The notes beneath the pieces are model-generated. The model saw only the letters and a list, made by a program, of their open reading frames with translations. It had not been told where the DNA came from and ran no database searches. This document shows positions 1 through 64,000 of a stretch of DNA of 64,000 nt, piece after piece. Source of the stretch: an uncultured Planctomycetia bacterium (GTDB lineage: Bacteria > Omnitrophota > Gorgyraeia > Pluralincolimonadales > Pluralincolimonadaceae); NCBI GenBank assembly GCA_964650515.1, contig CAZYUB010000002.1, forward strand, positions 12,708 to 76,707, read 5' to 3'. The position numbers were made by a program, and so were the translations under genes. Position 1 is the stretch's first letter, and the number at the start of each line of letters is the position of its first letter.

Positions 1-327
1 TTCCTGTTGAAATACGATGACCATGCGCAATTACGAACTATACGGCCCGTCACTCCATATCCCGGTTCGCCGCTTTATTATTACGCGATAGAGAAAGGAT
101 TATTGAAGGATTGTGCGGACTTCTATGAGAATAAACATGTCAATTCGGATCTCATGAGCGTAAACTTCACGGACATGGCGGAAGAGGAGTATTACAGCTG
201 CCTGCTGGACGCGAACAAGAGGTTGATAACTAAATATTACGAGAACAAACATTCCGATTCCATGAAACAGGTCGATGACATTTACCTGAAGAAGGATCCG
301 GCATTCAGGGGATTCAGGCAGACATAA
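1..327 (+). CDS. C-terminal fragment of a B12-binding radical SAM protein (5'-truncated by window edge)
   Basis: Frame is open from nt 1. The tail 'TPYPGSPLYYYAIEKGLL' parallels the C-terminal 'PG(S/A)P(L/I)Y' segment of the four complete B12-rSAM paralogues in this window (e.g. 'PIPGAPLYDFAKL', 'AYPGSPIYSEAV'). Confidence 0.5.
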   Translation, partial: FLLKYDDHAQLRTIRPVTPYPGSPLYYYAIEKGLLKDCADFYENKHVNSDLMSVNFTDMAEEEYYSCLLDANKRLITKYYENKHSDSMKQVDDIYLKKDPAFRGFRQT

Positions 328-351
328 ATGCGAAGAAGAGCGGAGGTTTAC

Positions 352-834
352 ATGGGTACTAAAAAATGCCGCATGTTGGATGATATCGGCCTTATTGTGT
401 ATGATTTCGACGGGGTCTTCACGGATAACAAGGTGATTCTCAGGGAGGACGGCAAGGAGAGCGTTGTTGTGAACAGGTCCGACGGACTTGCGGTTGGCAT
501 GCTGAAAACCCTGGGTGTCCCGCAATTCATACTGACTACAGAAACAAACGGTGTCGTCAGATCCCGTGCGAAAAAGTTGGGCATCGGTATCAAAAAAGGG
601 CTGAAAGACAAGAGGTCGGCGCTTGTATCATTATGCAAGACGCACGGCGTGTCTCTCAGGAATGTAATGTTCGTTGGAAATGATATCAATGACCTCGAAG
701 CGATGAGGGAATGCGGCTATCCGGTTGCGCCAGCCGACTCTTACGCCCCGGCAAAGAAGGCAGCAAGGATAATCACAAAGGCAAAAGGCGGCGGCGGGGT
801 AGTGCGTGAACTGCTGGATATACTGTTAAAATAA
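352..834 (+). CDS. KdsC-family HAD-IIIA phosphatase (3-deoxy-ulosonate-phosphate phosphatase-like)
   Basis: HAD motif I 'IVYDFDGVFTDN' and motif IV 'GNDINDL', about 160 aa, as in KdsC/NeuAc-9-P phosphatase. ATG 352 has GGAGG 6 nt upstream; ATG 328 directly abuts the previous stop and is an alternative start. Confidence 0.6.
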   Translation: MGTKKCRMLDDIGLIVYDFDGVFTDNKVILREDGKESVVVNRSDGLAVGMLKTLGVPQFILTTETNGVVRSRAKKLGIGIKKGLKDKRSALVSLCKTHGVSLRNVMFVGNDINDLEAMRECGYPVAPADSYAPAKKAARIITKAKGGGGVVRELLDILLK

Positions 835-836
835 AT

Positions 837-2669
837 ATGCTTACATATGACTTGGGTATGATGAGGTCACCGGACGGCTCGTCATTAAGATATGAAGTGG
901 AAAGAAAGTCCTCCGATCTTGCTATTAAAATTTCGGAGGCCATTGCATCCGAGCGCGCGTATGAAGAGATTTCTGGAAGGCTTCCAAGCCGAAGGGTTCG
1001 GTCGTATTTCCAGTACCTGCTGAAGAAGGAAGTGTATCCTTATGTCCGCCAAGCCTGCGTGATTGATTGGTATAGGCGAAACTCAAAAGAAGTATCTCCG
1101 GAGAACCGTCCTGTAAAGGTTCCGATCGGAGGAATATTCCCGCTACTGATTCAATGCTGGGATTTTAACGATATTAAGATAATACCCGAAATAAAAGTAT
1201 GCTCAGTTTATAAGTCATTACCTATTATTGGTAAGCGGATCAAAGATATGTTATATAGGAAGAATCGCGCTCATAATTATAGCATGACGTTGCGCAAACC
1301 TGACGGATATATGATCGCGTGCCATTATACAGAAGGAATTGATCCGCTCAAGAGGAATGACCTTAACTGGTATGATGGAAGCGGGATTGATCCCATGAAG
1401 GTATTAGTCTATTTCGACACCCCCAACAACAGTAACGGAAATCCTGTTAGGAAGGAAGAGGTTGATAAGCTGAGAAAAGCGGGGTTCACAACCGTGGTAT
1501 TGAAAGAAGGCATTGTCGAGGGGGGTGAAAATATTTTATGGCCGGGTCCGGCAAATTGTAGGGATAGTGCTGTAGATATCCGGTCTGCGTCCAATTCCGT
1601 GGAGCGTTGGATATACGCAGCAGGTAACGATATTATCGGAGATGTTAAATATTGGCGTGCATTCCATGATGATTTTAATGTTAGGATAAACTATATTCCC
1701 GAGGAAGGCGCCATAAAGAACCATGCGCAGGCAATTGCTTTCGATATGGACGGGGAAAAGGGTGGGTTGCTTGCAGGTAAACAGCGCTCGGAAGCATACC
1801 TTCCTTATAGATACCATTTGGGATATCATCCGAAGCATTTGTTCTTCATGTGGAACAGCAGGGCCGCGGGGCAACTAGGTTGTGGAACTGAAACAATAGA
1901 CGATATTGTACTGACCGGCTATACTTATGACGCACTAAAAAGGTTGCGTTTCGATGGAGAAGGTTTACCGTCAAAGGATATGAGGACTCGCGGGGCAAAG
2001 ACCGTAATAGCATTGTTTGATAACATGCATGGATGCGATTATTTTGTATCGACGAATGACATGGTGCGTTTCTATAAAGCATTTTTTGAATGGGCCATTG
2101 CAGATGATAAAATCGGGTTGATAATTAAATCCAAGAAACCCATGGTCATGGAGAGGCTGCCGCGGATCCGGACATTGATGGCCAAAGCAACGGATACGGG
2201 CAGATGTATAAAGATGGACGACGAGTGGGGAAGGTATCCGTCAGATGCATCATTCGGTGCGGATTTTGCAGTCGGAACCGGGATATCGTCCGCCGTAATG
2301 GAATCGGTGATTTCAGGATGCAGGGGCATACATTATGACGCGACTCATTTGATAGGGCATGAATTCTACAAATGGGGACATAACAGGATAATCTTTGATG
2401 ATCTTGATAAGATGGTGAGTGCGCTGAAAGGATATGCCTTTGACCCGGGAAGTGAAGAAGGCCTCGGGGATTGGTCAAATCATTTAAATGAGATCGACTC
2501 CTTCCGTGACTGGAAGGGTGGAGAACGCATGGGTCAGTATATGAGAATATTACTGGAATCGTTCGATAAAGGAATGACAAGGCGCGAGGCTTTGGACAAT
2601 GCCGATAGGTTTTACAGGGACAAATGGGGGCAGGACAAGGTCATAAGGACGGGACAAACAAATGGATAA
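837..2669 (+). CDS. hypothetical protein with GT-B-like C-terminal signature (candidate capsule-type KpsC/KpsS- or TagF-like transferase)
   Basis: 610-aa ORF in the lower-GC block. C-terminal 'AVGTGISSAVMESVISGCRGIHYD' resembles the GT-B donor-binding helix. Same architecture as 9641..11491 and 17197..18633. No firm family assignment. Confidence 0.35.
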   Translation: MLTYDLGMMRSPDGSSLRYEVERKSSDLAIKISEAIASERAYEEISGRLPSRRVRSYFQYLLKKEVYPYVRQACVIDWYRRNSKEVSPENRPVKVPIGGIFPLLIQCWDFNDIKIIPEIKVCSVYKSLPIIGKRIKDMLYRKNRAHNYSMTLRKPDGYMIACHYTEGIDPLKRNDLNWYDGSGIDPMKVLVYFDTPNNSNGNPVRKEEVDKLRKAGFTTVVLKEGIVEGGENILWPGPANCRDSAVDIRSASNSVERWIYAAGNDIIGDVKYWRAFHDDFNVRINYIPEEGAIKNHAQAIAFDMDGEKGGLLAGKQRSEAYLPYRYHLGYHPKHLFFMWNSRAAGQLGCGTETIDDIVLTGYTYDALKRLRFDGEGLPSKDMRTRGAKTVIALFDNMHGCDYFVSTNDMVRFYKAFFEWAIADDKIGLIIKSKKPMVMERLPRIRTLMAKATDTGRCIKMDDEWGRYPSDASFGADFAVGTGISSAVMESVISGCRGIHYDATHLIGHEFYKWGHNRIIFDDLDKMVSALKGYAFDPGSEEGLGDWSNHLNEIDSFRDWKGGERMGQYMRILLESFDKGMTRREALDNADRFYRDKWGQDKVIRTGQTNG

Positions 2670-3834
2670 GCTCAATATTCTTGTTGTGGGAACAGGCATG
2701 TACGTTTGCGGCCGCGGCACATCTGGGGACGGGACCATAATGCCGGCGATATTCGAATGGGGCAGGACTGGAAATATCGGGAAGGTAATTGTAGCGGGCA
2801 GGAGTGCGTCCGGCGCAAAGGAAGCGAGAAGGAAGATAAGCGCGCTCAGCAGGAAAATGGGCGTATCCATTCCGGTATCTTTCTATCCGCAAGGGAACGA
2901 CGACGCAAAGGCGTACCTTAAAGCTATAGAAGACATGCCTCGGCCGGCATGCGCACTTGTGGCGACACCTGACAGGCTGCATAAGCGTAACGCAAAGGCG
3001 GCCATAAAAGCGGGATTGAATACGCTTGTAGTCAAGCCGCTTGTATCGACCGCTGCGGAAGTAAGGTCGCTTGTAGGCCTTCAGAAACGGATGAAAGTGT
3101 ATTGCGCGGTGGAATTCCATAAAAGGTATGATGATGCCAATCTGAAGCTAAGGGATGTTATATCACAGGGTGCTATAGGTGACCCGCTGTATTTCCTTGC
3201 TGAGTTCAGCCAAAGGAAGAGCATGCCGGAAAAAGTATTCAGGAGATGGGCAGCCTCTACTAATATTTTCCAATACCTTGGGATCCATTATGTGGACATG
3301 ATCCACTTTGTCACCAAGGCGAAACCGGTGCGGGCAATGGCTACCGGCCAGTCGTATTGGCTGAAATCAAAAGGCATTGATACGTATGATGCCGTTGAAG
3401 CCGTTACCGAGTGGAAAATGAAGAATGGAAAAAGATTCGTCTCGCATATACTCACCAACTGGATAGATCCCGAGAAGACATCGGCAATGTCCGACCAGAA
3501 GATAAAGGTCATAGGCACGAAAGGAAGATTTGAGTCAGATCAAAAGGACCGCGGAGTTACGATGGTTACCGACAAGAATGGCATAGAAGAGATCAATCCG
3601 TATTTTTGCGGCCAGTATGGCCCTTATGGGAATGTGAGATTTCGCGGCTATGGAATAGACAGCATAAAGACCTTTCTCGATGATTCTATAGCGGTAGAAT
3701 ACGGCAGCAAAACCATTGAAGAACTTGAGAAGGAAAGGCCTACCTTCAGCGACTCGCTTATATCCACAATGGTGCTTGAAGCCGTTAATACAAGCTTGAA
3801 ACGCAACGGTAAATGGGTTGAGATAGGCGGATGA
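2662..3834 (+). CDS. Gfo/Idh/MocA-family NAD(P)-dependent oxidoreductase
   Basis: N-terminal Rossmann 'LNILVVGTGMYVCGRG' and 'EWGRTGNIGKVIVAGRSA'; 390 aa, typical for this family (sugar dehydrogenases). Confidence 0.65.
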   Translation: MDKLNILVVGTGMYVCGRGTSGDGTIMPAIFEWGRTGNIGKVIVAGRSASGAKEARRKISALSRKMGVSIPVSFYPQGNDDAKAYLKAIEDMPRPACALVATPDRLHKRNAKAAIKAGLNTLVVKPLVSTAAEVRSLVGLQKRMKVYCAVEFHKRYDDANLKLRDVISQGAIGDPLYFLAEFSQRKSMPEKVFRRWAASTNIFQYLGIHYVDMIHFVTKAKPVRAMATGQSYWLKSKGIDTYDAVEAVTEWKMKNGKRFVSHILTNWIDPEKTSAMSDQKIKVIGTKGRFESDQKDRGVTMVTDKNGIEEINPYFCGQYGPYGNVRFRGYGIDSIKTFLDDSIAVEYGSKTIEELEKERPTFSDSLISTMVLEAVNTSLKRNGKWVEIGG

Positions 3835-4874
3835 AAAGGATATCCGTACCGCACGAGCGGTTATCGGTATTTATAAAGAAAGTGCTTCTGAATGCCGGGG
3901 TGCGCGAAGATGTTGCGTATCATGTCACTGAAGGACTCGTGCAAGCGTCATTAAGGGGCGTCGATTCCCACGGCATAAGGCTCTTTCCGCATTATATGGC
4001 GTCGGTAAAAGCCGGCAGGATAAATCCCGGCCCCGCATATAAGTTCGAGAGGACATCAGCCTCTACCGGAAAGTTCGACGCGGACCATACGTTCGGGCAC
4101 GCCGCGGGCATAGAGTCGGCGAGGAAGGCTGTGGAGCTCGCGAAGGAAGCGGGGACGGGCAGCATAGCCGTGTTCAATTCGACCCACTTCGGCGCGGCCG
4201 CATATTTCACGCTCGAGATAGCCAAACAGGGGATGATAGGGTTGAGTTTCACTCATGCGGATTCCCTGATGAAGACATATGCGGGCAAGAGGGCGTTCCT
4301 CGGGACGAACCCGATATCTTTCGCCGCGCCGGTGGAGGGCGAAGAGCCGTTCTGCCTAGACATGGCCACGACGCTTTATAATTTCAACAAGATAAAACAG
4401 CTGAGGGAGCGCAAGCATCCCGCACCGGAAGGCGTAGGCGCGGATACGGAAGGCAATGAGACGACGGATGCGGATAAGATATCGATGCTGCTTCCAATAG
4501 GCGGATACAAAGGATACGGCCTCAGCCTGATGGTGGAGGTGCTTTGCGGGATACTTACCGGCATGCCATATGGCCCGAATATATCGAGCATGTTCAAGGC
4601 GCCGTTATCGCAGAAAAGGTTCCTCGGACATTTTATTTGCGCCATGAGGATAGACTGCTTCCAGGAAGAGAAAGTGTTCAAGCGGCGCATGTCCGCGCTT
4701 TTGAATGAACTGAGGAATGAGCCTCCCATGGAGAAAGGGGTACCGGTGCAGGTGGCGGGAGACCCGGAGAAGAAGGCCGCCTCGGCAAGGATGAAAGAAG
4801 GGATACCGATGGCCGCGCAGGAGGCGGAGGCCTTCATGAAGTTATCCGCCGAATACGGGGTGGAATTCATATAG
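3831..4874 (+). CDS. Ldh_2 family (malate/L-lactate/L-sulfolactate-type) dehydrogenase
   Basis: 'GVDSHGIRLFPHYMASVKAG', 'HTFGHAAG', 'GSIAVFNSTHFGAAAYF' match the type-2 malate/L-lactate dehydrogenase fold; 347 aa. Confidence 0.6.
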   Translation: MKRISVPHERLSVFIKKVLLNAGVREDVAYHVTEGLVQASLRGVDSHGIRLFPHYMASVKAGRINPGPAYKFERTSASTGKFDADHTFGHAAGIESARKAVELAKEAGTGSIAVFNSTHFGAAAYFTLEIAKQGMIGLSFTHADSLMKTYAGKRAFLGTNPISFAAPVEGEEPFCLDMATTLYNFNKIKQLRERKHPAPEGVGADTEGNETTDADKISMLLPIGGYKGYGLSLMVEVLCGILTGMPYGPNISSMFKAPLSQKRFLGHFICAMRIDCFQEEKVFKRRMSALLNELRNEPPMEKGVPVQVAGDPEKKAASARMKEGIPMAAQEAEAFMKLSAEYGVEFI

Positions 4875-6520
4875 TGGAAAGAGCGGACTTCGCGATAATA
4901 GTCCCTCCGGCGGGGGTAAGCAATACGGTGTATCCGCCGTACGGGGCGATGTACATAGCCAGCGCGGCAAGGAAGGCGGGGCTAGAGGTCCGCATAATCA
5001 ATGTCGATACAGACAGGATATCGAACGCTGAAGTGATTAAACGGCTGAAGGCGTTCGGGCCGGGGTTTATAGGCATAAGCGGTATAGTCGCGCCGTCATA
5101 TAGATATATCAAATGCCTCAGCACGGATATTAAGTCCGCGATGCCGGAGAGCATACAGATACTCGGCGGAGGGTTATCGAGCGCGGCAGAGACGGTCCTG
5201 AGGAACATGCCGGTGGATTACGTCATAGCGGGCGAAGGAGATTCGGCAATAACGGAACTCATCGGCCGCCTGCGGAACGGGAAGGTTCCTTCGGATGTAA
5301 CCGGGCTTTATTACAGGGATGGCGGAAAATACGTATTCACGGGCGCGAGGAGACTTATCGCGAATATAGATGAATTGCCGTATCCCGCATTCGACCTTGT
5401 CGATATGTCCAGGTATATGCCTGACGGGAAGGAGTTCATAGGGTATTTCATCCAGGATATAAAGGACAGAAGGATAACGGATCCCGGCCGTAAGGGCGGG
5501 ATGGTGACGATACCGACAGGCAGAGGATGCTTCGGGAAGTGCTCATTCTGCTTCAGGGCATACCCGGGGCTCAGGACCCATTCCATGAAATATGTATTCG
5601 ACCTCATAGAATACTGCGCGGAGAAATTCGGCACGAGCTACTTCTCCTTCGGGGACGAATGCTTCGCGCCGAACAAGGAACATAATTGGAGGTTTATCGA
5701 GGAGTACAAGAGGAGGAAGCTCGACCTCGTCTTCAGGATACTCGGCATGAGGGTCGACACGGTCGACAGGGATATATTGCACGCTTATAAAGATATAGGA
5801 TGCTGGATGATCGAATATGGTTTCGAGGCCGGCAACCAGAGGATGCTGAATATCATCGACAAGAGGGTTACTGTGGAGCAGAACAGGCAGGTCGCCCTCT
5901 GGACCAGGGAGGCGGGGATATATACGTCGCCGACGATCGTCCTCGCGATGCCCGGAGAGACGGACAGGACAGTCAACGAATCTATAGGGTTCCTTAAATC
6001 GCTGAACCTCGGTTATAAGCAGTACCAATGGTCGTACGCCCTGCCGATACCCGGCGCGCCGCTATATGATTTCGCGAAGCTGTCGGGCGCCATCAAGGAC
6101 GAAGACGAATATCTCACCTCGCTTGACGGCAAGGTCGCGGGCGCGGGGGTCTTCCATGTAAATCTTACCGATGAGCCGGACTCGACTGTCGCCGGATGGG
6201 CGGACAGGATAAAGGAAGAGGTCGACGCGGATTATTTCAGGAGGGTATACAGGTTCGGGGCGGTTGCCGCGATAGCGCGCCTTTTAAAGAAGATCCGCCT
6301 GCATTTAAGGAGGAAGGACCTGAAGGATGTCATCAAAGGAAAATTGAAGAGCATCTGGCGGGGACATCCGGGCGGGCAAACCTCTGCCCCTGTCGCAGTC
6401 CCGGCAAGGTTCAGGAAGAGAAGTGATATCGTATTCGAGGACCTGATAAAGGGCATGGACGATACGGTCATCAACAGGGATATGGCGCTGAAGAACATAA
6501 ATACGAGGATTGCGTCGTGA
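4874..6520 (+). CDS. B12-binding domain radical SAM protein (class B rSAM; probable sugar C-methyltransferase or epimerase)
   Basis: N-terminal cobalamin-binding Rossmann-like region, then 'TGRGCFGKCSFC' (CxxxCxxC) radical SAM cluster motif. GTG start overlaps the upstream stop. Confidence 0.7.
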   Translation: MERADFAIIVPPAGVSNTVYPPYGAMYIASAARKAGLEVRIINVDTDRISNAEVIKRLKAFGPGFIGISGIVAPSYRYIKCLSTDIKSAMPESIQILGGGLSSAAETVLRNMPVDYVIAGEGDSAITELIGRLRNGKVPSDVTGLYYRDGGKYVFTGARRLIANIDELPYPAFDLVDMSRYMPDGKEFIGYFIQDIKDRRITDPGRKGGMVTIPTGRGCFGKCSFCFRAYPGLRTHSMKYVFDLIEYCAEKFGTSYFSFGDECFAPNKEHNWRFIEEYKRRKLDLVFRILGMRVDTVDRDILHAYKDIGCWMIEYGFEAGNQRMLNIIDKRVTVEQNRQVALWTREAGIYTSPTIVLAMPGETDRTVNESIGFLKSLNLGYKQYQWSYALPIPGAPLYDFAKLSGAIKDEDEYLTSLDGKVAGAGVFHVNLTDEPDSTVAGWADRIKEEVDADYFRRVYRFGAVAAIARLLKKIRLHLRRKDLKDVIKGKLKSIWRGHPGGQTSAPVAVPARFRKRSDIVFEDLIKGMDDTVINRDMALKNINTRIAS

Positions 6521-7563
6521 TAAAGGAAGCACTGCTTGGCGCGGATTACAGGTTCGACGGGGCGCGGGCGCCCGAATCGCTGAGCAGCCCGCAGAATGAG
6601 GCGAGGGAGCTCTTCCTTAAGGAAATCCACGCGAGGGGAAGATACATCGACGTAGAAAGATGCCCTTTCTGCGGGGCGACGGAGTTCACTAAGATATCGG
6701 AAAGGGACGCGAGGGGGCTGCCGTGCGAAGTGGCCGTCTGCGACGCCTGCGGCGGTTGCTTCAAGAACAGGATATTGGACCCGGAGGCGAACAGGTACCT
6801 ATACGAGAAGATATCATACAAGCTTAGAGGCAAGGACCGTTCTCCCGGTGCGGTAGAAGCGCTGTTCAGGAAAAGGATAAAGGAATTCGCCTACCCGAGA
6901 TACGGGTTCATAAGGCATTTCGCCGAACTGGAGCAGGATATGGACCTTATCGCCGAATTCGGCTGCGGCGACGGAGCGAACCTGGTCCCGTGGAGGAATG
7001 ACGGTTTCAGCGTGACAGGCATCGAGTTCGACGGCGGAATGGTCGAGTTCGGCAAAAGCAAGGGGCTCGACCTCGTTCAGGGCGATTTCATGACTCACGA
7101 CCTCGGAGGGGCGAGGCCGAAGCTTATAATACTGTCGCACCTGCTTGAGCATGTATCGGACATGGACGCGGTCTTATCGCGCATACATTCCGTGCTCGAC
7201 CCTTACGGATACCTTTTCATAGAAGTGCCGGGCGTGAAAGGACAGGGCCTTGGCAGGCCGTTATCTTCGTTCGATGTTGAGCACAATTACTATTTTGACC
7301 TCGAAAGCCTTTCGTCGGCGCTGGGGAAGAACAGGTTCTCCGTGGCTTACGGAGACGAATATATAAGGATGATCTGCAGGCCGGCCGGCGCGCAGATCGC
7401 GGGACCGCAGAATAAGAAGGCCGGCGCGCGAAGGTTGTTGGACCTGTTCAGGCGAGAGGAGTCGGGAAGCATCAGGGCGAAGGTCATGAACAGGCTGACC
7501 GGCGCGTACTTCAAGGCGTATTATTCGATATTATCGTCAGGAGTCGGACATGGCAAAGCGTAA
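6517..7563 (+). CDS. class I SAM-dependent methyltransferase with N-terminal Zn-ribbon
   Basis: 'CPFCG...C..CG' zinc ribbon, then SAM motif I 'IAEFGCGDGANL'; GTGA start overlap. Confidence 0.6.
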   Translation: MIKEALLGADYRFDGARAPESLSSPQNEARELFLKEIHARGRYIDVERCPFCGATEFTKISERDARGLPCEVAVCDACGGCFKNRILDPEANRYLYEKISYKLRGKDRSPGAVEALFRKRIKEFAYPRYGFIRHFAELEQDMDLIAEFGCGDGANLVPWRNDGFSVTGIEFDGGMVEFGKSKGLDLVQGDFMTHDLGGARPKLIILSHLLEHVSDMDAVLSRIHSVLDPYGYLFIEVPGVKGQGLGRPLSSFDVEHNYYFDLESLSSALGKNRFSVAYGDEYIRMICRPAGAQIAGPQNKKAGARRLLDLFRREESGSIRAKVMNRLTGAYFKAYYSILSSGVGHGKA

Positions 7564-24552: not shown

Positions 24553-24558
24553 TAAGCC

Positions 24559-49244: not shown

Positions 49245-49245
49245 T

Positions 49246-56031: not shown

Positions 56032-56033
56032 AC

Positions 56034-57926
56034 ATGTGCGGGATCTGCGGGATCATAGACATCTCCGGAAAGCCTGTAAGCGCCGACGCGGTAAAGGCAA
56101 TGTGCTCGGAGATGAAGCACCGCGGCCCCGACGACGAAGGGATATACCTGAATGATGCCGGCAGCGGCCCCTCGGCCGCTCTCGGCCACAGGAGGCTGAG
56201 CATCATAGACCTGTCGTCGTGCGCGAAGCAGCCGATGTCGAACGAGGACGGTTCGGTATGGCTTGTCCTGAACGGAGAGATATATAATTACAACGAGCTG
56301 AGGCCCGGGCTCGAGAGTAAGGGCCATAAGTTCAGGTCGCATTCCGATACCGAGACGCTAGTGCACCTGTACGAGGAATACGGCGTAAAGTGCGTCGACA
56401 TGCTCAGGGGGATGTTCGCGTTCGCGATCTGGGACGATAATAAGAAGGAGCTTTTTGCGGCCCGGGACAGGGTCGGGAAGAAGCCGTTCATATATCAGCA
56501 TAAGGACGGAAGGTTCGTGTTCGCGTCCGAATTCGCGGCGATCCTGAAGAGCGGCGATATATCCCGAAAAGTAAGCGATGACGCGATACACTATTACATG
56601 AGCCTTGGTTACGTCCCGGCCCCGATGTCGGCGCTGGAAGGCGTAAGCAAACTGTCGCCTGCCTGCTATCTTACGCTTTCCAGGAACGGCCTTAAGGTGG
56701 AACGATATTGGGAACTGGATTACTCCAGGAAGCTAAAGATAAGCGAGGAAGATGCCGCGGCCGAGGTCAGAAGGCTTGCTGAAGAAGCGGTAAAGATAAG
56801 GTTGTTCAGCGACGTCCCTCTCGGCGCTTTCCTGAGCGGCGGGGTAGACTCAAGCTGTGTAGTGGCGATGATGAGCAAACTCTCCCCTGGAAAGGTCAGG
56901 ACCTTTACGATAGGCTTCGAGGAAAAGGACTACAGCGAGCTCGAATACGCAAGGAAGATATCGGGCCTTTTCGGCACCGAACACCGTGAATTCATCGTGA
57001 AGCCGAATGCGCTCGATATCATAGGCATGCTTGCGGAAAGGTACGGCGAACCGTATGCCGACTCTTCGTGCATACCGACGTACTACGTATCGAAGGAGAC
57101 GCGCGCGTTCGTGACTGTCGCCCTTAACGGCGACGGCGGCGACGAATCATTCGCTGGATACGAGCGTTACCAGGCGATGAGCGCGGCGGAAAAGATCCGC
57201 GGCCTCGGGCTGGGCGCGGCGGCTAAAGCCGCCGCAACGGTATTGCCGGACTCGACAGACCCGAAGGACCTTGCGCGCAGGGCAAGGAGGTTCCTTACCA
57301 ACGCGGGGCTGCCAGCGGCCGAAAGATACTTGAGATGGGTCGGGATAGCGGGGGACGTAAAACCTGAGGGGCTGTATTCCGGGGATTACCTTGGCCGTAT
57401 AGATAGAAGCGGCCCGTTAAACCTGCTGAAACCGTATATAGGCGACAGGTCGTGCCCGGAGTTCCTCGACAGGCTCCTGAAGGCCGACGTGAACACGTCG
57501 CTGCCGAACGACCTGCTCGTAAAAGTCGATATCGCGGGCATGGCGGCGTCGCTCGAAGGGCGTTCGCCGTTCCTCGACCATAAGCTTATGGAATTCGCGG
57601 CGTCACTTCCCTCGTCATATAAGATAAAAGGAAGCGTCAAGAAGTACATACTTAAGAAGGCCTTCTCGGGGGTGATACCCGCCGACATACTTTCGAGGAG
57701 GAAAATGGGATTCGGCGTGCCTGTAAGCGCGTGGTTCAGGGGAGAGCTGAAGGGAATACTGGCGGAGACCCTGCTTTCAAAGGCGTCGCTATCGAGGGGA
57801 TATTTCAGGCAGGAGGCGGTAAAAGGGATGGTCGAGAGCCATACCTCCGGAAGGAAGGATTATTCGTTCCAATTGTGGGCGATGTTGATGCTCGAACTGT
57901 GGCATAAGAGGTTCATCGACGGATGA
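56034..57926 (+). CDS. asnB: asparagine synthase (glutamine-hydrolysing) family amidotransferase, AsnB-like
   Basis: 'MCGICGI', 'LGHRRLSIIDLS', 'LNGEIYNYNELR', PP-loop 'SGGVDSS'; 630 aa. AGAGAGG RBS upstream. Confidence 0.8.
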   Translation: MCGICGIIDISGKPVSADAVKAMCSEMKHRGPDDEGIYLNDAGSGPSAALGHRRLSIIDLSSCAKQPMSNEDGSVWLVLNGEIYNYNELRPGLESKGHKFRSHSDTETLVHLYEEYGVKCVDMLRGMFAFAIWDDNKKELFAARDRVGKKPFIYQHKDGRFVFASEFAAILKSGDISRKVSDDAIHYYMSLGYVPAPMSALEGVSKLSPACYLTLSRNGLKVERYWELDYSRKLKISEEDAAAEVRRLAEEAVKIRLFSDVPLGAFLSGGVDSSCVVAMMSKLSPGKVRTFTIGFEEKDYSELEYARKISGLFGTEHREFIVKPNALDIIGMLAERYGEPYADSSCIPTYYVSKETRAFVTVALNGDGGDESFAGYERYQAMSAAEKIRGLGLGAAAKAAATVLPDSTDPKDLARRARRFLTNAGLPAAERYLRWVGIAGDVKPEGLYSGDYLGRIDRSGPLNLLKPYIGDRSCPEFLDRLLKADVNTSLPNDLLVKVDIAGMAASLEGRSPFLDHKLMEFAASLPSSYKIKGSVKKYILKKAFSGVIPADILSRRKMGFGVPVSAWFRGELKGILAETLLSKASLSRGYFRQEAVKGMVESHTSGRKDYSFQLWAMLMLELWHKRFIDG

Positions 57927-57938
57927 GTGAGGGTAAAG

Positions 57939-59783
57939 ATGCTTAAGAACCACGACATTATATGCATATCTTCTATCGACTGGGATTTTATCTGGCAGGG
58001 GCACCAGGAGATCATGTCCGCGTTCGCCGCGAACGGCAACCGCGTACTGTTCATCGAGAATACCGGCGTGCGCGCGCCGAAGATAAAAGATATTTCCCGG
58101 CTGCGCAAGAGGTTCAGGGATTACTTCAGGGGCGTAAAGGGCATAAGGGAGGAAACGAAGAACCTTTATATATACTCCCCGATAGTGCTTCCGTTCCCGT
58201 ACTCGCGCATAGCGAGGTTTGTCAATAAGTCCATCCTTCTCTCGGTCATCAAAAGATGGATGAGGGCGATGAATTTCGTGAACCCGGTAATATGGACATT
58301 CCTTCCGACGGGCACCGCGATGGACATCATAGAGAACATAGACAAGAAACTGCTGATCTATTATTGCATAGATAATTTCGCGGTCAGTTCCGCGTCCGCG
58401 AAAAAGATAATAGCGTACGAGAAGAAACTGATAAGCGCGGCGGACCGCGTGTTCGTGACCTCGCAGGCGTTGTATGACCACTGCGTGAGGTTCAATGATA
58501 ATGTGACGATCTTCCCGTTCGGCGTGAATATCGAGAATTTCGAGAAGGTAAGGAAGGAGCAAACACGGGTGCCCGCAGAGCTTGAGGGCCTGAAGCCGCC
58601 GGTCATCGGATATGTCGGAGGGGTGCACAAGTGGATAGATTTCGAGCTTGTCAAATATGCCGCTTCCGCGCACCCGGAGATGCAGTTCGTGTTCGTCGGG
58701 CCGGTGCAGACAGACGTGTCGCAGCTTTCCGGCTGCCCCAATATCCGTCTTTTGGGGGGACGCAAGCATTCCGAGCTTCCGAACCTCGTTAAGCATTTTA
58801 CCGCGGCTGTCATTCCTTACCTGTTAACGGAGTATACGAAGAACGTCTATCCCACAAAACTTAACGAATACCTCTCGATGGGCAAGCCGGTCGTATCATC
58901 CTATCTTCCCGAAGTGGATACGTTTAACGGCAGGTACGGCGGCATAGTATATATTGGCAAGGACAAGCAGGAGTTCTCCTCGCTGTTATCCAGGGCGATA
59001 GCGGAAGATAACGACGCGCTGAGGCAGAAGAGGATATCTGCGGCTTCGGAGAACAGCTGGAGGTCGCGCATAGAGCTGATGAGCGCGGCCATAGACGAGG
59101 CCATAGAGGAGAAGACGAGGAAGGGCGAGGCCGGCTGGAAGGACAACCTTGCCGGATTATTTGCCGCCGCGAGGCGCAGGATCGCGCGGCCGGTGATATA
59201 TACCGCGGCGGCCATTCTGCTCGTATTCTGCACGCCCGCGATATGGTTTTTCGCCGAGCCGCTTAAGATAAGCGAACAGCCGCAAAAGGCCGACGCGATA
59301 GTCGTCTTTGCCGGCGGAACGGGTGAATCGGGAAAGCAGGGGCAGGGATATGAGGAGAGGGTCGATTACGCGGTCGAGCTTTATAAGAAGGGCTACGCGG
59401 AGAACATCATCTTCTCATCGGGATATTCCTACGCGATAAAGGAAGTCGATATCATGAAAGCGTTGGCGGTCTCGATGGGAGTTCCCGCAAACGCGATAAC
59501 GCTCGAGGACAAGTCCGGATATACGTATGAATTTGTGAAGAACACGAACGATATCGTGCGCAGGAACGGCTGGAAGAGGATACTGCTGGTCAGTTCGCCA
59601 TATCATATGAGGCGCGCGTCATTGGTTTATGGTAAACTCGGAGAAGGTATAGACGTCATATATACGCCTATCAGGGACAGCAAGTTCTACAGGCACGGGT
59701 TTGGCGCGTCGCCGAGACAGATAAAGGGTATTTTACACGAGTACGCCGGTATAGTATATTACCTTATAAAGGGATATATCTAA
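57939..59783 (+). CDS. GT4-like GT-B glycosyltransferase fused to C-terminal DUF218 (YdcF/ElyC/SanA-like) domain
   Basis: GT4 C-domain 'TKLNEYLSMGKPVVSS'. Then a hydrophobic helix and 'ADAIVVFAGGTGESG...RVDYAVELYKKGYAENIIFSSG...ILLVSSPYHMRRA' (DUF218). ATG 57939 has GAGGG upstream; GTG 57927 is also possible. Confidence 0.5.
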   Translation: MLKNHDIICISSIDWDFIWQGHQEIMSAFAANGNRVLFIENTGVRAPKIKDISRLRKRFRDYFRGVKGIREETKNLYIYSPIVLPFPYSRIARFVNKSILLSVIKRWMRAMNFVNPVIWTFLPTGTAMDIIENIDKKLLIYYCIDNFAVSSASAKKIIAYEKKLISAADRVFVTSQALYDHCVRFNDNVTIFPFGVNIENFEKVRKEQTRVPAELEGLKPPVIGYVGGVHKWIDFELVKYAASAHPEMQFVFVGPVQTDVSQLSGCPNIRLLGGRKHSELPNLVKHFTAAVIPYLLTEYTKNVYPTKLNEYLSMGKPVVSSYLPEVDTFNGRYGGIVYIGKDKQEFSSLLSRAIAEDNDALRQKRISAASENSWRSRIELMSAAIDEAIEEKTRKGEAGWKDNLAGLFAAARRRIARPVIYTAAAILLVFCTPAIWFFAEPLKISEQPQKADAIVVFAGGTGESGKQGQGYEERVDYAVELYKKGYAENIIFSSGYSYAIKEVDIMKALAVSMGVPANAITLEDKSGYTYEFVKNTNDIVRRNGWKRILLVSSPYHMRRASLVYGKLGEGIDVIYTPIRDSKFYRHGFGASPRQIKGILHEYAGIVYYLIKGYI

Positions 59784-59798: not shown

Positions 59799-60290
59799 AT
59801 GAGGATGATAGACGAAAAGGGAAGGGTTTTCGGAAAGATCAACATTATTGATTTCATCTTTGTGGTCCTGCTACTGAGCGTTATCCCGGCCTTTTATTAC
59901 GGCAACAGGCTTACGGAAATGAAGAAGCCGGCGGAGAAGACGTATGAGAAGGTCATCGCAGAGATAAAGTTCCCGAAGATCATGCCCGAGCTGGCGTCGG
60001 TGGTCAGGGAGGGCGATGTGGACAAGGATCCGGGAGGGGGCGCGGCCGGCGTCCTAAAAAAGATAATTTCCAGCGAGAACAGCCGGTTCGCCGCCCTGGG
60101 CAAAAACGATCAGGTGGTGATCATGGAAGACCCGACGGCCAAGGACATACAGGCATCCTTCGAGCTGAACTGCGTAAACGATAACGGCTCGCTCGACTTC
60201 GAGGGATATCCCGTGAAGATAGGAAGCAATATCGTATTTACTACCGACCTCTACAGCATGCAGGGCATAGTGGTGAAGATAGAGAAATGA
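59799..60290 (+). CDS. small N-terminally membrane-anchored conserved hypothetical (DUF4330-like)
   Basis: 'MRMIDEKGRVFGKINIIDFIFVVLLLSV' resembles the DUF4330 N-terminus often found in polysaccharide loci. AAAGGAG RBS in the 15-nt gap upstream. Confidence 0.4.
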   Translation: MRMIDEKGRVFGKINIIDFIFVVLLLSVIPAFYYGNRLTEMKKPAEKTYEKVIAEIKFPKIMPELASVVREGDVDKDPGGGAAGVLKKIISSENSRFAALGKNDQVVIMEDPTAKDIQASFELNCVNDNGSLDFEGYPVKIGSNIVFTTDLYSMQGIVVKIEK

Positions 60291-60715
60291 AAAGGGGCAG
60301 AACGGCCGGAAGCGGGCTTGTAAAAGCGGCTCAATACACCTGGGGCGTCTATAGCCGGTTCATCGACCGCCTTGAATCAGTATTCCTGCAGAGTTTGGTG
60401 ATAAAGTTTTTAAGGAAAGCAGCGGATATCCTGTCGGCAAGCGTTGAAGGAAGCTTCCTGGCGAGTGTCTCAAGGCCGTTGAACGGGTGCGTTTATTCCG
60501 GAAGCGTGCTGATAGGGAGCATAAAGAGGCCGTTCCGCAGGGCGGAATCGCGGATAGGCGCGTATTATGAGGAAAGCGGATTCAGGCGCATCGCGTCGGA
60601 GATAGAAGCGCTGTTCGTCCGCGTCGACAAGTTATTTTCCGGCTCTGGATGGAAGACGCTGAAGGATAACAGCAAGATGATCGGCATGCTGAGAAGATGC
60701 AGCGGAAAAAAATAA
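60287..60715 (+). CDS. hypothetical protein
   Basis: 142-aa ORF translationally coupled (ATGA) to the upstream gene; no recognisable motif. Confidence 0.3.
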   Translation: MKRGRTAGSGLVKAAQYTWGVYSRFIDRLESVFLQSLVIKFLRKAADILSASVEGSFLASVSRPLNGCVYSGSVLIGSIKRPFRRAESRIGAYYEESGFRRIASEIEALFVRVDKLFSGSGWKTLKDNSKMIGMLRRCSGKK

Positions 60716-61893
60716 AAGTCCTGAGGATAATCGCCCGCCTCAATGTCGGCGGCCCTGCCATACACACCATCCTTCTGACATCGGCCCTTAAAGGAGAGGA
60801 TTATGAATCGATCCTTGTCTGCGGGATCGTAGACAGTTCCGAAAAGGATATGTCCTACCTCGCGGATGCAAAGGGGGTCAAGCCGGTCGTCATTCCGGAC
60901 CTTTGCAGGAGCATAAACCCGGTAAGGGACCTGCGCGCGTTTTTTTCCATATTCAAGGCCATCAGGGAATTCAAGCCGGATATAGTCCATACTCATACGG
61001 CGAAGGCCGGAGCGATAGGAAGGGCGGCCGCGGTGCTCGCAGGAGTCCCGGTCAGGATACATACCTTCCACGGCCATATATTCGACGGTTATTTCAGCAG
61101 GCTGCAGGCGGCGGTCTTCCTGGCGATAGAGAGGATGCTGGCATATTTCACGAAATATATAATCGTCGTCAGCGAAGCGCAAAAATCGGATATCGCGGTA
61201 AGATACCGGATCGCCGGAGGGCGCAAGATAAAGGTCGTCCCTCTCGGCCTGGAGCTGGGGAAGTACGCCGTCATCGGCGGAAGGGATAAGAATTTCAGGA
61301 GGGAGCTCGGGATCGGAGACGGCGCGGTGCTGGTCTCGATAATCGGCAGGCTCGTGCCCGTAAAGAACCACAGGATGTTCATAGATGCCGCGAAAATAGC
61401 GGTGGCGGAAGCCCCCGCCGAGGATATGAGGTTCGCCGTAATAGGGGACGGCGAGGAGAGGGCATCGCTGGAAAAATATGTATCCGACTGCGGCCTGGAC
61501 GGCAAGGTATCGTTTTGCGGATGGAAGGAGGATATGTCGGGTGTCTACGCGGATTCGGATATTGTAGCGCTCACCTCGTTGAACGAGGGGACGCCCGTAG
61601 CCCTGATAGAGGCCCTGGCCTCGGGAAGGCCGGTCGTCTCGACCGACGTGGGCGGCGTAAAGGATGTCGTTCAGGACGGCATGACAGGATATCTCGTCGC
61701 TTCCGGGGATACGCGCGCGTTCGCGAAAAAGCTGCGTGAGCTTGCGGATGACGCCGCGAAGCGTGTGTCGTTCGGGGCGGCCGGAAGGGTCTCGGTCATG
61801 GGGAAATACTCAAGCGACAGGCTGGTATCCGACATAAAACGGCTTTACACAGATTCCCTAATAGATTATAATAAGGGCAAAAAAGGAGTATAG
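60697..61893 (+). CDS. GT4 (GT-B, group 1) glycosyltransferase
   Basis: 'IKVLRIIARLNVGGPAIH...', 'SLNEGTPVALIEALASGRPVVSTDVGGVKDVV'. Confidence 0.75.
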   Translation: MQRKKIKVLRIIARLNVGGPAIHTILLTSALKGEDYESILVCGIVDSSEKDMSYLADAKGVKPVVIPDLCRSINPVRDLRAFFSIFKAIREFKPDIVHTHTAKAGAIGRAAAVLAGVPVRIHTFHGHIFDGYFSRLQAAVFLAIERMLAYFTKYIIVVSEAQKSDIAVRYRIAGGRKIKVVPLGLELGKYAVIGGRDKNFRRELGIGDGAVLVSIIGRLVPVKNHRMFIDAAKIAVAEAPAEDMRFAVIGDGEERASLEKYVSDCGLDGKVSFCGWKEDMSGVYADSDIVALTSLNEGTPVALIEALASGRPVVSTDVGGVKDVVQDGMTGYLVASGDTRAFAKKLRELADDAAKRVSFGAAGRVSVMGKYSSDRLVSDIKRLYTDSLIDYNKGKKGV

Positions 61894-61897
61894 ATAA

Positions 61898-62863
61898 GTG
61901 CGCTATCTAATAACCGGCGGCGCCGGTTTCATAGGTTCCCATCTGTCGGATAAACTTATAAAAGAAGGCCACCAGGTGACTGTTTTGGATGACCTGTCTA
62001 CGGGAAAGACAGGCAATATCAGGCATCTCGAAGGAAACCCCTCGTTTAGCCTGGTCGTCGGGACGATCCTGAATGAATACCTTGTGGACAAGCTCGCGGA
62101 GCGCTGTGACGCGATATTCCATCTCGCGGCCGCGGTAGGGGTTGAGCTTATTGTCAACCATCCACTGGAGTCGCTTACCACGAACATAAAGGGAAGCGAG
62201 ATAGTGCTGGATATGGCGTGCCGCTACCACAAGAAGGTGCTGATAACATCTACGTCGGAGATATACGGGAAGAATACACAGGGCCCGCTCAAGGAAGACC
62301 AGGACAGGATCCTCGGGTCGCCGCTAAAATCAAGGTGGAGCTACTCCACCGCGAAGGCGGTAGATGAGATGCTCGCCTATACATATTGGAAGACCAAGGA
62401 TGTCCCGGCGGTCATAGTGCGGCTGTTCAATACCGTCGGGCCTAGGCAGACCGGGACGTACGGTATGGTAGTGCCGAGATTTGTCAGGCAGGCGGTCGAG
62501 GGGAAGGATATCACCGTTTACGGCTCCGGCAAGCAGAGCAGGTGCTTCCTGCACGTGAAAGACGTGGTCGCCGCGCTGCCTAAACTTATCGAGGAACCTA
62601 AGGCGTACGGCCAGGTGTTCAATATCGGCAGCCAGGAAGAAGTGACGATCGACGCGCTCGCGCGGAAGGTCATAGAGATCACGAAAAGCAGCTCCAAAGT
62701 AGTGAATATCCCCTATGAAAAGGCGTATGAAGAGGGTTTTGAGGACATGGAGAGAAGGGTCCCCGACACCTCAAAGATACGCGGGCTGATCGGTTTCGCC
62801 CCGACGGCGGACCTTAAAGCGATAATAGAAGATGTGGTAAGGTATATAAAGGAAAACAAGTAA
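61898..62863 (+). CDS. NAD-dependent NDP-sugar epimerase/dehydratase (GalE/UDP-glucuronate epimerase-like)
   Basis: GTG start '[15 protein letters not shown]'; 'TSTSEIYG'; 'YSTAKAVDE' YxxxK. Confidence 0.75.
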   Translation: MRYLITGGAGFIGSHLSDKLIKEGHQVTVLDDLSTGKTGNIRHLEGNPSFSLVVGTILNEYLVDKLAERCDAIFHLAAAVGVELIVNHPLESLTTNIKGSEIVLDMACRYHKKVLITSTSEIYGKNTQGPLKEDQDRILGSPLKSRWSYSTAKAVDEMLAYTYWKTKDVPAVIVRLFNTVGPRQTGTYGMVVPRFVRQAVEGKDITVYGSGKQSRCFLHVKDVVAALPKLIEEPKAYGQVFNIGSQEEVTIDALARKVIEITKSSSKVVNIPYEKAYEEGFEDMERRVPDTSKIRGLIGFAPTADLKAIIEDVVRYIKENK

Positions 62864-62865
62864 CA

Positions 62866-64000
62866 GTGGCTTATGTTTACCTTTTTTTGGCCGCATTTTC
62901 AGTCGCGTTCCTGACGACCCCGGTAGTCAAGGTTTTGGCAGGGCGGCTCGGCGCCGTGGCAAAGCCCAAGGAAGACAGGTGGCATAAGAAGGTCATACCG
63001 CTGATGGGAGGCGTCGCCATCTATGCGGCGTTCATGGCCGCGTACCTGTTCTTCATGCGCGAAAGGATGAATACGGGGCTCGTGGTCGGCGCCACGTCGA
63101 TATTCATCCTCGGCGTCATCGACGATATTAGAGGGCTGAGCCCCCAATCGAAACTTATAGGGCAGATCGTCTGCGCATCCCTTGCGGTGATGTTCGGGGT
63201 ATCGATCAAGGCTATCCCGATCGCCGCCATATCCGTGCCGCTTACCATACTCTGGATGGTCGGGATAACGAATTCATTCAATCTGCTCGATAATATGGAC
63301 GGCTTGTCGGCAGGCGTGGCGGCCATAGCATCCCTCACGCTCTTCGCGTGTTCGCTCGCGCTGCATAATTATGAGATAGCGATGGTATCCCTTGTAATGG
63401 CGGGCGCGGCGCTCGGTTTCCTGCCGCATAATTTCTACCCGGCGAGGATATTCATGGGCGACTGCGGCGCTATGTTCCTCGGGTTCACGCTGTCGTCGCT
63501 CGCAATAATGGGCACGTGGAAGGAGGCCTCGCACCTTTTCCTGGTGTTGCTTATCCCCGTTTTGGCGCTGGCCGTCCCTATATTCGATACACTCTTCGTT
63601 GCTATAACGCGCACGATAGACGGGAGGTCGGTAGCGAAGGGCGGAAAGGACCATACGTCGCACAGGATGGTCTTCCTCGGATGGCAGGAGAGAAAGGCGG
63701 TCATGGTGCTTTACGCCATATCTATACTGTTCGGGGCCGCGGCATACATGTCGCTGCACGTGAAGATATACGTGAGCGCTGTCATTATGTCGCTTCTCGT
63801 GCTGGTCGTCTCGGCTTTCGCGATCTTCCTGAACCATTCCACCATGTCGAGGCGCTCAGCGAGGCAGCCCGGCGATAAAGAGGTCTCGTTCTACAAGAAC
63901 GAATCAGAGCTGATAGAGGCCCTTGTAAAATACAAGAGGGTCATATTCGAGGTCATATGCGATTTTGTCCTGATATGCCTCGCGTACATGTCGAGCTATA
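62866..64000 (+). CDS. WecA/MraY-family polyprenyl-phosphate N-acetylhexosamine-1-phosphate transferase (3'-partial, runs off window)
   Basis: Not in the ORF track because no stop falls in the window. Translating from GTG 62866 gives 'GVIDDIRGLSPQSKLIGQ', 'ITNSFNLLDNMDGLSAGV', 'FMGDCGAMFLGF', which are canonical WecA/MraY motifs. Confidence 0.7.
   Translation, partial: MAYVYLFLAAFSVAFLTTPVVKVLAGRLGAVAKPKEDRWHKKVIPLMGGVAIYAAFMAAYLFFMRERMNTGLVVGATSIFILGVIDDIRGLSPQSKLIGQIVCASLAVMFGVSIKAIPIAAISVPLTILWMVGITNSFNLLDNMDGLSAGVAAIASLTLFACSLALHNYEIAMVSLVMAGAALGFLPHNFYPARIFMGDCGAMFLGFTLSSLAIMGTWKEASHLFLVLLIPVLALAVPIFDTLFVAITRTIDGRSVAKGGKDHTSHRMVFLGWQERKAVMVLYAISILFGAAAYMSLHVKIYVSAVIMSLLVLVVSAFAIFLNHSTMSRRSARQPGDKEVSFYKNESELIEALVKYKRVIFEVICDFVLICLAYMSSY

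Follow-up and report, generated by a model that had tools for sequence, protein, structure and literature searches.

A gapless, co-directional lipopolysaccharide gene array in Candidatus Omnitrophota and a candidate NusG-paralog system for its transcription

The capsular polysaccharide (CPS) loci of Bacteroides comprise roughly 20 genes, and the rfb O-antigen locus of Leptospira holds some 90 genes over about 100 kb, almost all of them with the same orientation; we know of no NusG paralog or ops association for the latter. A paper on Leptospira rfb (PMC10958091) is silent on strand and operon structure. Very long polysaccharide and antibiotic clusters are known to be activated by NusG paralogs, whose genes often lie next to the clusters (PMC7819879; PMC7593976). 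Among the antibiotic examples are LoaP and TaA, with the dfn and mln clusters of Bacillus velezensis and the ta cluster of Myxococcus xanthus, a 40-kb operon (PMC7819879). In the Bacteroides UpxY/opsX system the non-template DNA hairpin is 5'-YGCGNAGCR (PMC11685472), and in the RfaH/ops system of Escherichia coli it is 5'-GCGGTAGC, with a pause-inducing TG (PMC5995543; PMC11685472). Here we describe a 64,000-nucleotide stretch of contig CAZYUB010000002.1 (positions 12,708 to 76,707 of the forward strand; hereafter the window), which, judged from its gene content, is the interior of a lipopolysaccharide (LPS) O-antigen plus core locus of a Candidatus Omnitrophota bacterium. With slightly more confidence than doubt, we favour the reading that this locus would be expressed as a NusG-paralog-driven, translationally coupled super-operon with secondary internal promoters.

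Six-frame translation and a stop-to-stop listing of open reading frames (ORFs) show that positions 1-64000 are tiled by exactly 56 ORFs, g1 to g56, all on the + strand. The window is cut at both ends, g1 (to 327) being a 3' fragment and g56 (from 62866) running off the end. At each of the 55 junctions an in-frame ATG, GTG or TTG lies between -26 and +16 nt from the upstream stop. When the junctions are classified by the start codon nearest to that stop (n=55), 22 are 4-nt start/stop overlaps (18 ATGA, 2 GTGA and 2 TTGA), 2 are overlaps of 1 nt, 12 are overlaps of 7-26 nt and 19 are gaps of 0-16 nt. Taking every ORF from its first start codon reduces the 4-nt overlaps to 16 and produces five implausibly long overlaps; the figure of at least 19 four-nt overlaps given in the original prediction is therefore reasonable. 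The same prediction had placed every credible gene on the + strand, had set the largest gap at about 16 nt and had noted several further overlaps of 8-26 nt, and all of this is borne out. The widest gap is exactly 16 nt (25402-25417) and carries GGAGGT before g23, and the non-coding DNA between genes sums to 61 nt for the whole window. A recognisable Shine-Dalgarno sequence is absent at 15 of the 23 possible -4 junctions, among them the ATGA junction g32/g33. The same gene order and junctions recur in relatives from independent assemblies (NCBI, ENA, JGI and Logan; loci L002/L083, L084, L086 and L087). Strand runs and gaps in these relatives were taken from the gene tables supplied with the loci; a length-based gene caller that had been run over 80 loci called six false - strand genes in the window, and its numbers were not used.

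The + strand of the window is purine-rich (55.8% A+G), with positive GC skew throughout. Very long antisense ORFs are present on the - strand, at 8220-9572 (450 aa), 18054-19514 (486 aa) and 42234-43661 (475 aa), and one long antisense ORF exactly equals the sense gene g9 in length. These are probably shadows of a purine-rich, RNY-biased coding sequence. No Pfam match was obtained for the ten longest - strand ORFs (213-486 aa), and an Rfam search of the window returned no RNA gene.

The array had been called unusual even for O-antigen loci. This holds for the length of the uninterrupted run and not for the tight packing, which is normal in operons of this lineage: in locus L092 the non-glycan pil genes are packed as tightly as the glycan array. 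The special feature is thus the run length and not the style of the junctions. The locus had also been expected to exceed the window, and relatives do lengthen the array on both sides. The nearest relatives of g55 belong to metagenome-assembled genomes of Candidatus Omnitrophota, L002 (contig JBAZJG010000001.1; 92% identity) and L003 (88%). Synteny between L002 and the window covers g46-g56, whose proteins are 81-99% identical apart from g53 (51%). Beyond g56, the + strand of L002 continues with a Wzy_C/WaaL-type ligase, two GT9 heptosyltransferases, one GT1-like glycosyltransferase (Glyco_trans_1_2-type), three GT2 enzymes and a GmhB-like phosphatase, followed by a further + strand gene that begins with an ATGA overlap and runs off the locus. 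A homologue of g5 at 97% identity is located on the same contig as L002, in a locus (L083) that matches window positions 3106-16644 at 94.5-95.5% DNA identity (blastn) and has nine more + strand genes ahead of its g2 homologue. An apparent gap of 76 nt among these upstream genes is probably due to a start-codon call, because the orthologue in L087 has 335 aa rather than 303 and overlaps its neighbour. A JGI contig, L086, shares 11.6 kb with L083 at 99.85% identity and reaches further upstream. Chaining L086, L083 and L002, with a middle of about 34 kb unread, we estimate that the + strand array of this related population would span about 82 kb and about 75 genes. The unread middle measures 34,971 bp on the relative's contig, in agreement with the 36,188 bp of its equivalent in the window, and a strand switch is reached at neither end of the chained array.

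Candidate control elements lie upstream of the window and were read in relatives (L086, L087, L088, L090, L092 and L093). In L086 and L087 sizeable gaps occur only around a gene pair about 15 kb upstream of g5; if the genomes are collinear, the pair would lie about 11 kb ahead of the first base of the window. The L086 order is helix-turn-helix (HTH) gene, NusG paralog, a 175-nt leader, DegT, GFO, Hexapep, Wzm, Wzt and then further genes leading to g5. The HTH gene encodes a 203-aa HTH_24/C2185-like_N protein whose best NCBIfam match is the MarR-family EPS-associated regulator (69.7 bits, under the cut-off of 88). The NusG paralog (169 aa, L086 3434-3943) passes the UpxY model (NF033644; 109.4 bits, cut-off 100) and is below the cut-offs for NusG (TIGR00922; 72 bits, cut-off 135.7), RfaH (TIGR01955; 78.5 bits, cut-off 144.5) and LoaP (79.9 bits, cut-off 125). 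Its Omnitrophota family comprises about forty 90%-identity clusters that share 68-92% identity, and several members have already been named UpxY-family by NCBI's pipeline. In every locus fetched the paralog is preceded by the HTH gene, and downstream of it stands a sugar enzyme (DegT aminotransferase or epimerase), with no further small gene. The genes upstream of the pair are non-glycan in L092 (pilMOQ, RNase E/G) and divergent in L093, which is from Nitrospinota, so that the glycan array truly begins with the pair in both of these loci. Nearly all the sizeable gaps in these arrays flank the pair, the one other being a gap of 122 nt in L090.

The gap before the HTH gene contains a promoter-like TTGACA-17-TAAAAT (TAAACT or TACAAT in others) that is conserved in L088, L090 and L092; on the + strand of L086 2500-4300 it is the better of two overlapping sigma-70-like hits before the HTH gene, and no others were found. 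Between the -10 box and the start of the MarR-like gene there is an inverted repeat, CGTTC-N7-GAACG (L086 2790-2813), at the same place in L088, L090 and L092, which may be an autoregulation operator or a hairpin in the 5' untranslated region. L086 and L087 are 100% identical across the gaps around the pair and only 91.7% identical overall, so the regulatory head may have been exchanged recently between these populations.

The gap after the paralog, here called the leader, measures 91-267 nt. The composite motif TGTAAYC-N2-6-GGGCGRAGC-N1-3-TG is present in five of five independent leaders and occurs nine times in the 1.42 Mb scanned, always at the leader position and nowhere else. Its core, GCGNAGC with a downstream TG, matches at the sequence level both the Bacteroides opsX consensus YGCGNAGCR and the E. 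coli ops hairpin GCGGTAGC. In the 175-nt leader of L086 (3944-4118, the same as L087 2332-2506) the core of the motif reads GGGCGGAGC. This leader contains three GCGNAGC units, GGCGGAGCC, CCGCGAAGCGG and CTGCGAAGCGCAG, and it folds somewhat better than its shuffles (z = -2.2); it also carries two copies of a 29-nt direct repeat, TCCTATTGCGATTGCTTGCTGAGGACTGC, which is absent from the other leaders. We suggest that the paralog and this motif would act together as an antitermination pair. They do not make up an RfaH/ops regulon, defined by an RfaH orthologue and the 12-nt ops sequence GGCGGTAGnnTG, since the paralog is below the TIGR01955 cut-off and the T of GCGGTAGC is missing from the motif. 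Neither the leader motif nor GGGCGRAGC occurs in the 64-kb window, which therefore gives no sign of internal reloading sites. GCGNAGC is itself depleted in the window (34 occurrences, compared with 54.9 ± 6.9 in dinucleotide shuffles), possibly through avoidance of stray pause or loading sites, or through codon-usage effects.

Within the window, consensus scans returned promoter-like counts at chance level. The original prediction had reported no promoter-sized intergenic space in the 64 kb; taken to mean that promoters are absent altogether, this does not hold, because sigma-70-like sites stand 26-39 nt before g8, g52 and g55 and are conserved in diverged relatives. The candidate before g55 (61844-61872, + strand) is TTTACA-17-TATAAT, an 11/12 match inside the 3' end of g54 and 26 nt before GTG 61898. 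The candidate before g52 (59732-59760, + strand) is TTTACA-17-TATATT, a 10/12 match inside the 3' end of g51 and 39 nt before ATG 59799. These are the two best promoter matches on the + strand, and they have in common the extended pattern TTTACAC-N16-TATAWT. A de novo search for 6-mers enriched upstream of starts yielded only TTTACA and TTACAC, both traceable to these two sites. The third candidate (7495-7524, + strand), before g8, is CTGACC-18-TATTAT (TTGACC in L084), inside the preceding gene and 26 nt before ATG 7550. These three are all the + strand hits that lie 8-70 nt before gene starts, and each of them shows conservation.

The conservation test rests on diverged relatives and covers the array outside g12-g45. 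The hexamers of the g52 and g55 sites are invariant in L002 and L003 and their spacers vary, and the genes that host them are only 62-63% identical in protein sequence in L003. Synonymous-codon identity to L003 is 15/20 in the 90 nt upstream of g55 and 11/17 in the 90 nt upstream of g52, compared with a background of 0.46, and ranges from 0.15 to 0.40 at the junctions before g47-g51. The g56 junction, which has no promoter-scan hit, gives 14/23. In many other Omnitrophota a TATAAT-type box is present 25-35 nt before the g55 homologue in true intergenic DNA. The g8 site lies in a block that is nearly identical between the window and L084 (average DNA identity 79%), with a synonymous-codon identity of 21/23 against a background of 0.60; the case for this site is weaker, since g9 next to it likewise shows unusual conservation. 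A scan of identity to L003 in plain 40-nt steps failed to pick out the promoter regions, as many coding stretches match just as well; synonymous-codon identity was the more informative measure.

The absence of stem-loop/T-tract terminators, by contrast with that of promoters, was correctly predicted: the + strand has few terminator-like hits, and these have short stems and are intragenic. An excess of terminator-like hairpins followed by T runs was seen at 20001-40000 (34, against 18.0 ± 4.3), of which 21 are on the - strand. This excess may simply follow from the T richness of the antisense strand, or it may act as a barrier to antisense transcription.

The gene layout, the family assignments and the conservation of motif and promoters, as observed above, would fit the following proposed sequence of events, in which the number of transcripts is likewise presumed. 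Transcription would most likely start, as in the closest relatives, at the sigma-70-type promoter before the MarR-like HTH gene and the 169-aa UpxY-family paralog, and we presume that the window's own genome has the same head. RNA polymerase would next cross the leader and pause at the ops-like TGTAAYC-N2-6-GGGCGRAGC-N1-3-TG, where the paralog would load on it, as RfaH and the UpxY of Bacteroides do. Polymerase loaded in this way would resist pausing and Rho and might read through tens of kilobases, while the overlapping or abutting cistrons would keep ribosomes on the RNA by translational coupling and deny entry to Rho. Secondary promoters before g8, g52 and g55 would supply downstream blocks independently, and this would be of greatest consequence for the conserved initiation and core block, that is, g55 and g56 and, in relatives, WaaL and the heptosyltransferases. 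Several observations weigh against this scheme. The head region is outside the window, whose first three genes are 47-56% identical in amino acid sequence to those of L083/L086 and are nearer to L084. L086, L088 and L090 carry more + strand sugar genes upstream of the pair, so that the co-directional run does not in every case begin physically with the pair. In the loci fetched, no UpxZ partner stands beside the paralog. In the leader, an upstream arm GTTACA that could pair with TGTAAC is present in only three of five cases, and no compensatory changes were found. Finally, sigma-70-like hits 8-70 nt upstream of starts number 3/38 on the + strand, compared with 2.1 expected; since this is no overall enrichment, any weaker or non-consensus internal promoters are not countable.

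Two alternatives concern the number of transcription units. The main rival to the favoured reading, which we consider unlikely and yet the strongest of its competitors, is that there are many ordinary units, each with a weak or non-consensus embedded promoter, that the gaplessness is a matter of streamlining in the small-celled Omnitrophota, and that the paralog governs the first few genes only. It draws on the fact that the three embedded promoter-like sites were seen wherever a diverged relative permits the conservation test, on the equally tight pil genes of L092, and on the real intergenic promoters that precede the g55 homologue in many relatives. Against it stand the lack of overall enrichment just mentioned, the 15 of 23 possible -4 junctions that have no Shine-Dalgarno sequence, which fits reinitiation coupling within one mRNA, and the conserved paralog with its ops-like leader, an arrangement that serves long read-through elsewhere. 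At the other extreme, and as the first option of the original prediction, the whole window might be strictly one transcript with no internal promoter. The genes do lie on one strand, with short or overlapping junctions and no internal terminator; no gap exceeds 16 nt, convincing + strand terminators are lacking, and promoter-like counts overall are those expected by chance. We nevertheless hold a single transcript to be improbable, because the two best promoter matches (11/12 at 26 nt before g55, and 10/12 at 39 nt before g52) keep the same hexamers in L002/L003, the synonymous conservation (15/20 and 11/17) exceeds the background of 0.46, and TATAAT boxes occur at the same place in the intergenic DNA of relatives. 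The claim of one operon is thus not supported as written, in view of 7495-7524, 59732-59760 and 61844-61872, where the three conserved promoter-like sites are embedded in coding sequence. The more general statement, that such an array implies either long polycistronic transcription or embedded promoters, gains support for both of its alternatives.

The array could also be an artefact, either an assembly chimera or the result of mis-called genes that hide intergenic regions. The GC content at third codon positions (GC3) is mosaic, low in g1-g4 and g18-g25 compared with 0.67-0.78 in g5-g17, as a chimera might be. The source contig is also absent from the collections searched, where exact-protein look-ups with g3, g5, g48 and g54 returned only one 3-kb Logan contig that falls within the window. 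This explanation is nonetheless very improbable: the independent NCBI, ENA, JGI and Logan assemblies have the same order and junctions, 49 of the 56 ORFs have full-length domain matches, and the mosaic boundaries coincide with the gain or loss of a g11 cassette and with a g4 breakpoint against real relatives. A bolder version of the favoured reading can be entertained only tentatively, as a doubtful proposal that we rank a little below the many-unit explanation. It would have one continuous UpxY-dependent, translationally coupled transcript of about 71 kb, with 60-odd cistrons, begin at the ops-like leader and extend at least as far as g51, and would make HTH/UpxY/ops an undescribed phylum-wide LPS control system common to Omnitrophota and Nitrospinota, with the regulator upstream of its own loading site. 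Counted in genes, few polycistronic units proposed for any bacterium would be as long.

That the window is a glycan locus, as predicted, is correct by its Pfam gene content. Matches were obtained for 49 of the 56 products, all compatible with glycan synthesis, and no Pfam match was found for g3, g10, g15, g36, g45, g53 and the g1 fragment. There are 17 glycosyltransferases: 9 GT2, of which two are fused to nucleotidyltransferase domains, 4 GT1/GT4, 3 GT-C of the PMT_2/ArnT type and one initiating WecA/MraY-type enzyme. Nucleotide-sugar pathways are represented by an RmlA-D-like set (g26-g29), a second RmlD (g48), a CDP/NDP-sugar set (g18-g20) and, in all, four cytidylyltransferase domains. Modification enzymes include three S-adenosylmethionine (SAM) methyltransferases, a DegT aminotransferase, hexapeptide and GNAT acyltransferases and a polysaccharide deacetylase, and there are two AsnB-like amidotransferases, one HMGL-like aldolase and one Ldh_2 oxidoreductase. 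B12-binding radical SAM enzymes number four, in addition to the g1 fragment of a fifth. Fusion proteins are frequent: g9 (GT2 with cytidylyltransferase), g38 (nucleotidyltransferase with GT2), g51 (GT1 with DUF218) and g56 (WecA-like with CoA_binding_3, full length in L002). The fusions and the radical SAM paralogs suggest sugars that are heavily C-methylated or otherwise unusual. As expected of an LPS cluster, nucleotide-sugar and modification genes thus occur together with multiple glycosyltransferases; g56 supplies the initiating polyprenyl-phosphate sugar transferase (Glycos_transf_4, PF00953; E 5e-37), and export and ligation would be served by the ABC exporter g11 in the window, Wzm/Wzt upstream in L086/L087, and Wzy_C/WaaL, two GT9 enzymes and GmhB downstream in L002. 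Because g56 is the last gene of the window, only relatives show the ligase and core genes, and it is the ligase, heptosyltransferase and GmhB-like genes following in L002 that identify the locus as LPS O-antigen plus core.

All the genes are on the + strand, with family assignments from Pfam unless stated otherwise. The array opens with g1 (1..327), which encodes the C-terminal portion of a B12-binding radical SAM protein and matches the C-terminus encoded by the L084 gene at 5137-6525 with 80% identity, and with g2 (328..834), a HAD-type hydrolase (Hydrolase_3). The 610-aa product of g3 (837..2669) has a weak match to the polysaccharide PFTS-motif protein family (TIGR04417, 36 bits, under cut-off), and a metagenome scan found one relative (48%), on a 6-kb contig. 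Then come g4 (2662..3834), a GFO/IDH/MocA oxidoreductase; g5 (3831..4874), an Ldh_2 family oxidoreductase, 97% identical to P0001; g6 (4874..6520), a B12-binding radical SAM enzyme; g7 (6517..7563), a SAM methyltransferase; g8 (7550..8287), a cytidylyltransferase (CTP_transf_3); and g9 (8289..9641), the fusion named above. No family match was found in Pfam or NCBIfam for g10 (9641..11491; 616 aa). With the same two databases, g11 (11493..13298) is a fused ABC exporter of MsbA/HepA/PglK-like type and g12 (13273..14997) an HMGL-like aldolase/synthase. They are followed by a cytidylyltransferase, g13 (14994..15728); a B12-binding radical SAM enzyme, g14 (15710..17206); g15 (17197..18633), with no family match, for which the start at 17197 is preferred to the first start codon of the ORF, at 16963; a GT2, g16 (18630..19559); and another B12-binding radical SAM enzyme, g17 (19556..21076).

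Positions 21073..30094 hold, in order, an NTP transferase, an NDP-sugar dehydratase, an epimerase, a GT2, a methyltransferase, an AsnB-like amidotransferase, a second methyltransferase and a GT-C (PMT_2) enzyme (g18-g25), and 30069..33199 the RmlA/B/C/D-like dTDP-sugar pathway (g26-g29). Next are g30 (33189..34094), a GT2; g31 (34098..35246), transglutaminase-like with TPR; g32 (35243..37066), a GT-C (PMT_2) enzyme with 11 hydrophobic segments; an epimerase, a hexapeptide acyltransferase and a GT2 (g33-g35, 37063..39228); g36 (39230..40765), a polytopic membrane protein with no family match; and g37 (40762..42114), again GT-C (PMT_2). The fusion of NTP transferase and GT2, a B12-binding radical SAM enzyme and the DegT aminotransferase (g38-g40) occupy 42096..46119, and a FemAB-like GNAT protein, the polysaccharide deacetylase and two GT2 enzymes (g41-g44) occupy 46120..50184. 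For g45 (50181..51896; no family match) the start at 50181 is preferred. The genes g46-g51 (51898..59783: GT2, GT4, RmlD, GT1, asparagine synthase, GT1 with DUF218) are syntenic with L002 and L003, and g52-g54 (59799..61893) encode a DUF4330 protein, a 142-aa protein without assignment and a GT4. The middle one of these, g53 (60287-60715), is 51% identical to its L002 counterpart, compared with 81-92% for its neighbours, and is a fast-evolving gene between conserved ones. The window closes with g55 (61898..62863), an NDP-sugar epimerase/dehydratase, and g56 (62866..64000), the WecA/MraY-type initiating phosphoglycosyl transferase, which is cut at the window end and has 596 aa with CoA_binding_3 in L002.

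Comparison with relatives also indicates how the array changes. GC3 falls into blocks: 0.48-0.59 in g1-g4, 0.67-0.78 in g5-g17, 0.46-0.57 in g18-g25 and 0.58-0.76 in the rest. The two low-GC3 islands (1-3834 and 21073-30094) are probably exchanged or imported cassettes, and the g18-g25 island also contains the window's two widest gaps (6 and 16 nt). Similarity to L083 starts abruptly at position 3106 (blastn), inside g4, and proteins encoded upstream of this point are 47-56% identical to those of L083 and 59-80% identical to those of L084; judged from these alignments, 3106 looks like an intragenic recombination breakpoint. In L083, g11 (11493-13263) is missing and g10 and g12 sit 11 nt apart; in the window it is an exact cassette that replaces the 11-nt spacer and overlaps g12 by 26 nt. 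L084 has the same tight layout with other cassettes. The g4 breakpoint, the g11 cassette and the L084 cassettes thus show an array that remains gapless even as recombination within genes and the exchange of cassettes alter it, and this bears on O-antigen diversity in streamlined genomes.

If the favoured reading is correct, the NusG-paralog/ops principle would extend from Proteobacteria, Bacteroidota, Firmicutes and Myxococcota to the uncultivated Omnitrophota and Nitrospinota, with a concrete conserved loading motif that could be tested in vitro. The array (about 75 genes and 82 kb in the relative; 61 nt of spacer in 64 kb) would then be an extreme natural case for the reach of processive antitermination and translational coupling. 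If there is only dense packing with many internal promoters, this is an ordinary, though large, LPS cluster. In the literature searched we found neither a glycan mega-locus nor a NusG paralog described for Omnitrophota.

As a whole, the arrangement most resembles UpxY/opsX of Bacteroides. A NusG paralog that passes the UpxY model is encoded with the polysaccharide locus in the relatives, the leader has a GCGNAGC non-template hairpin core with conserved upstream sequence and a downstream TG, and the target is a long co-directional glycan operon. In Bacteroides, however, the paralog gene is downstream of the ops-like site and its partner is UpxZ, whereas here it is upstream and its partner is a MarR-like HTH gene; no invertible promoter like that of the CPS operons was seen here, the relative's array is several times longer, and the module is found in other phyla, Omnitrophota and Nitrospinota. 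RfaH/ops (JUMPStart) of the Enterobacteria has the same class of target, LPS core and O-antigen, and the same logic, in which a polarity-suppressing NusG paralog is loaded at a pause site where the non-template DNA has a small hairpin; there is also a resemblance between GGGGCGGAGCCTG and GGCGGTAGCGTG (PMC5995543). It differs in that the relatives' paralog scores below the RfaH cut-off, in that the ops base T6, which is read by RfaH, is absent from the leader motif, and in that RfaH acts on several operons from a gene located elsewhere. The LoaP/TaA antibiotic clusters likewise have a NusG paralog beside a very long operon, where it is needed for read-through (PMC7819879), but their cargo is polyketide, with a few giant genes in place of about 75 small ones, the relatives' paralog is below the LoaP cut-off, and LoaP has been proposed to use an RNA hairpin. 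Leptospira rfb is alike as a very long co-directional LPS O-antigen locus with many sugar-modification genes. The transcription principle for long sugar operons is thus a known one, and what is unusual here is its scale. On present sequence evidence the system would differ from UpxY/opsX and RfaH/ops in four ways: it has no UpxZ, its regulator precedes the loading site, the partner is MarR-like, and the array is far longer.

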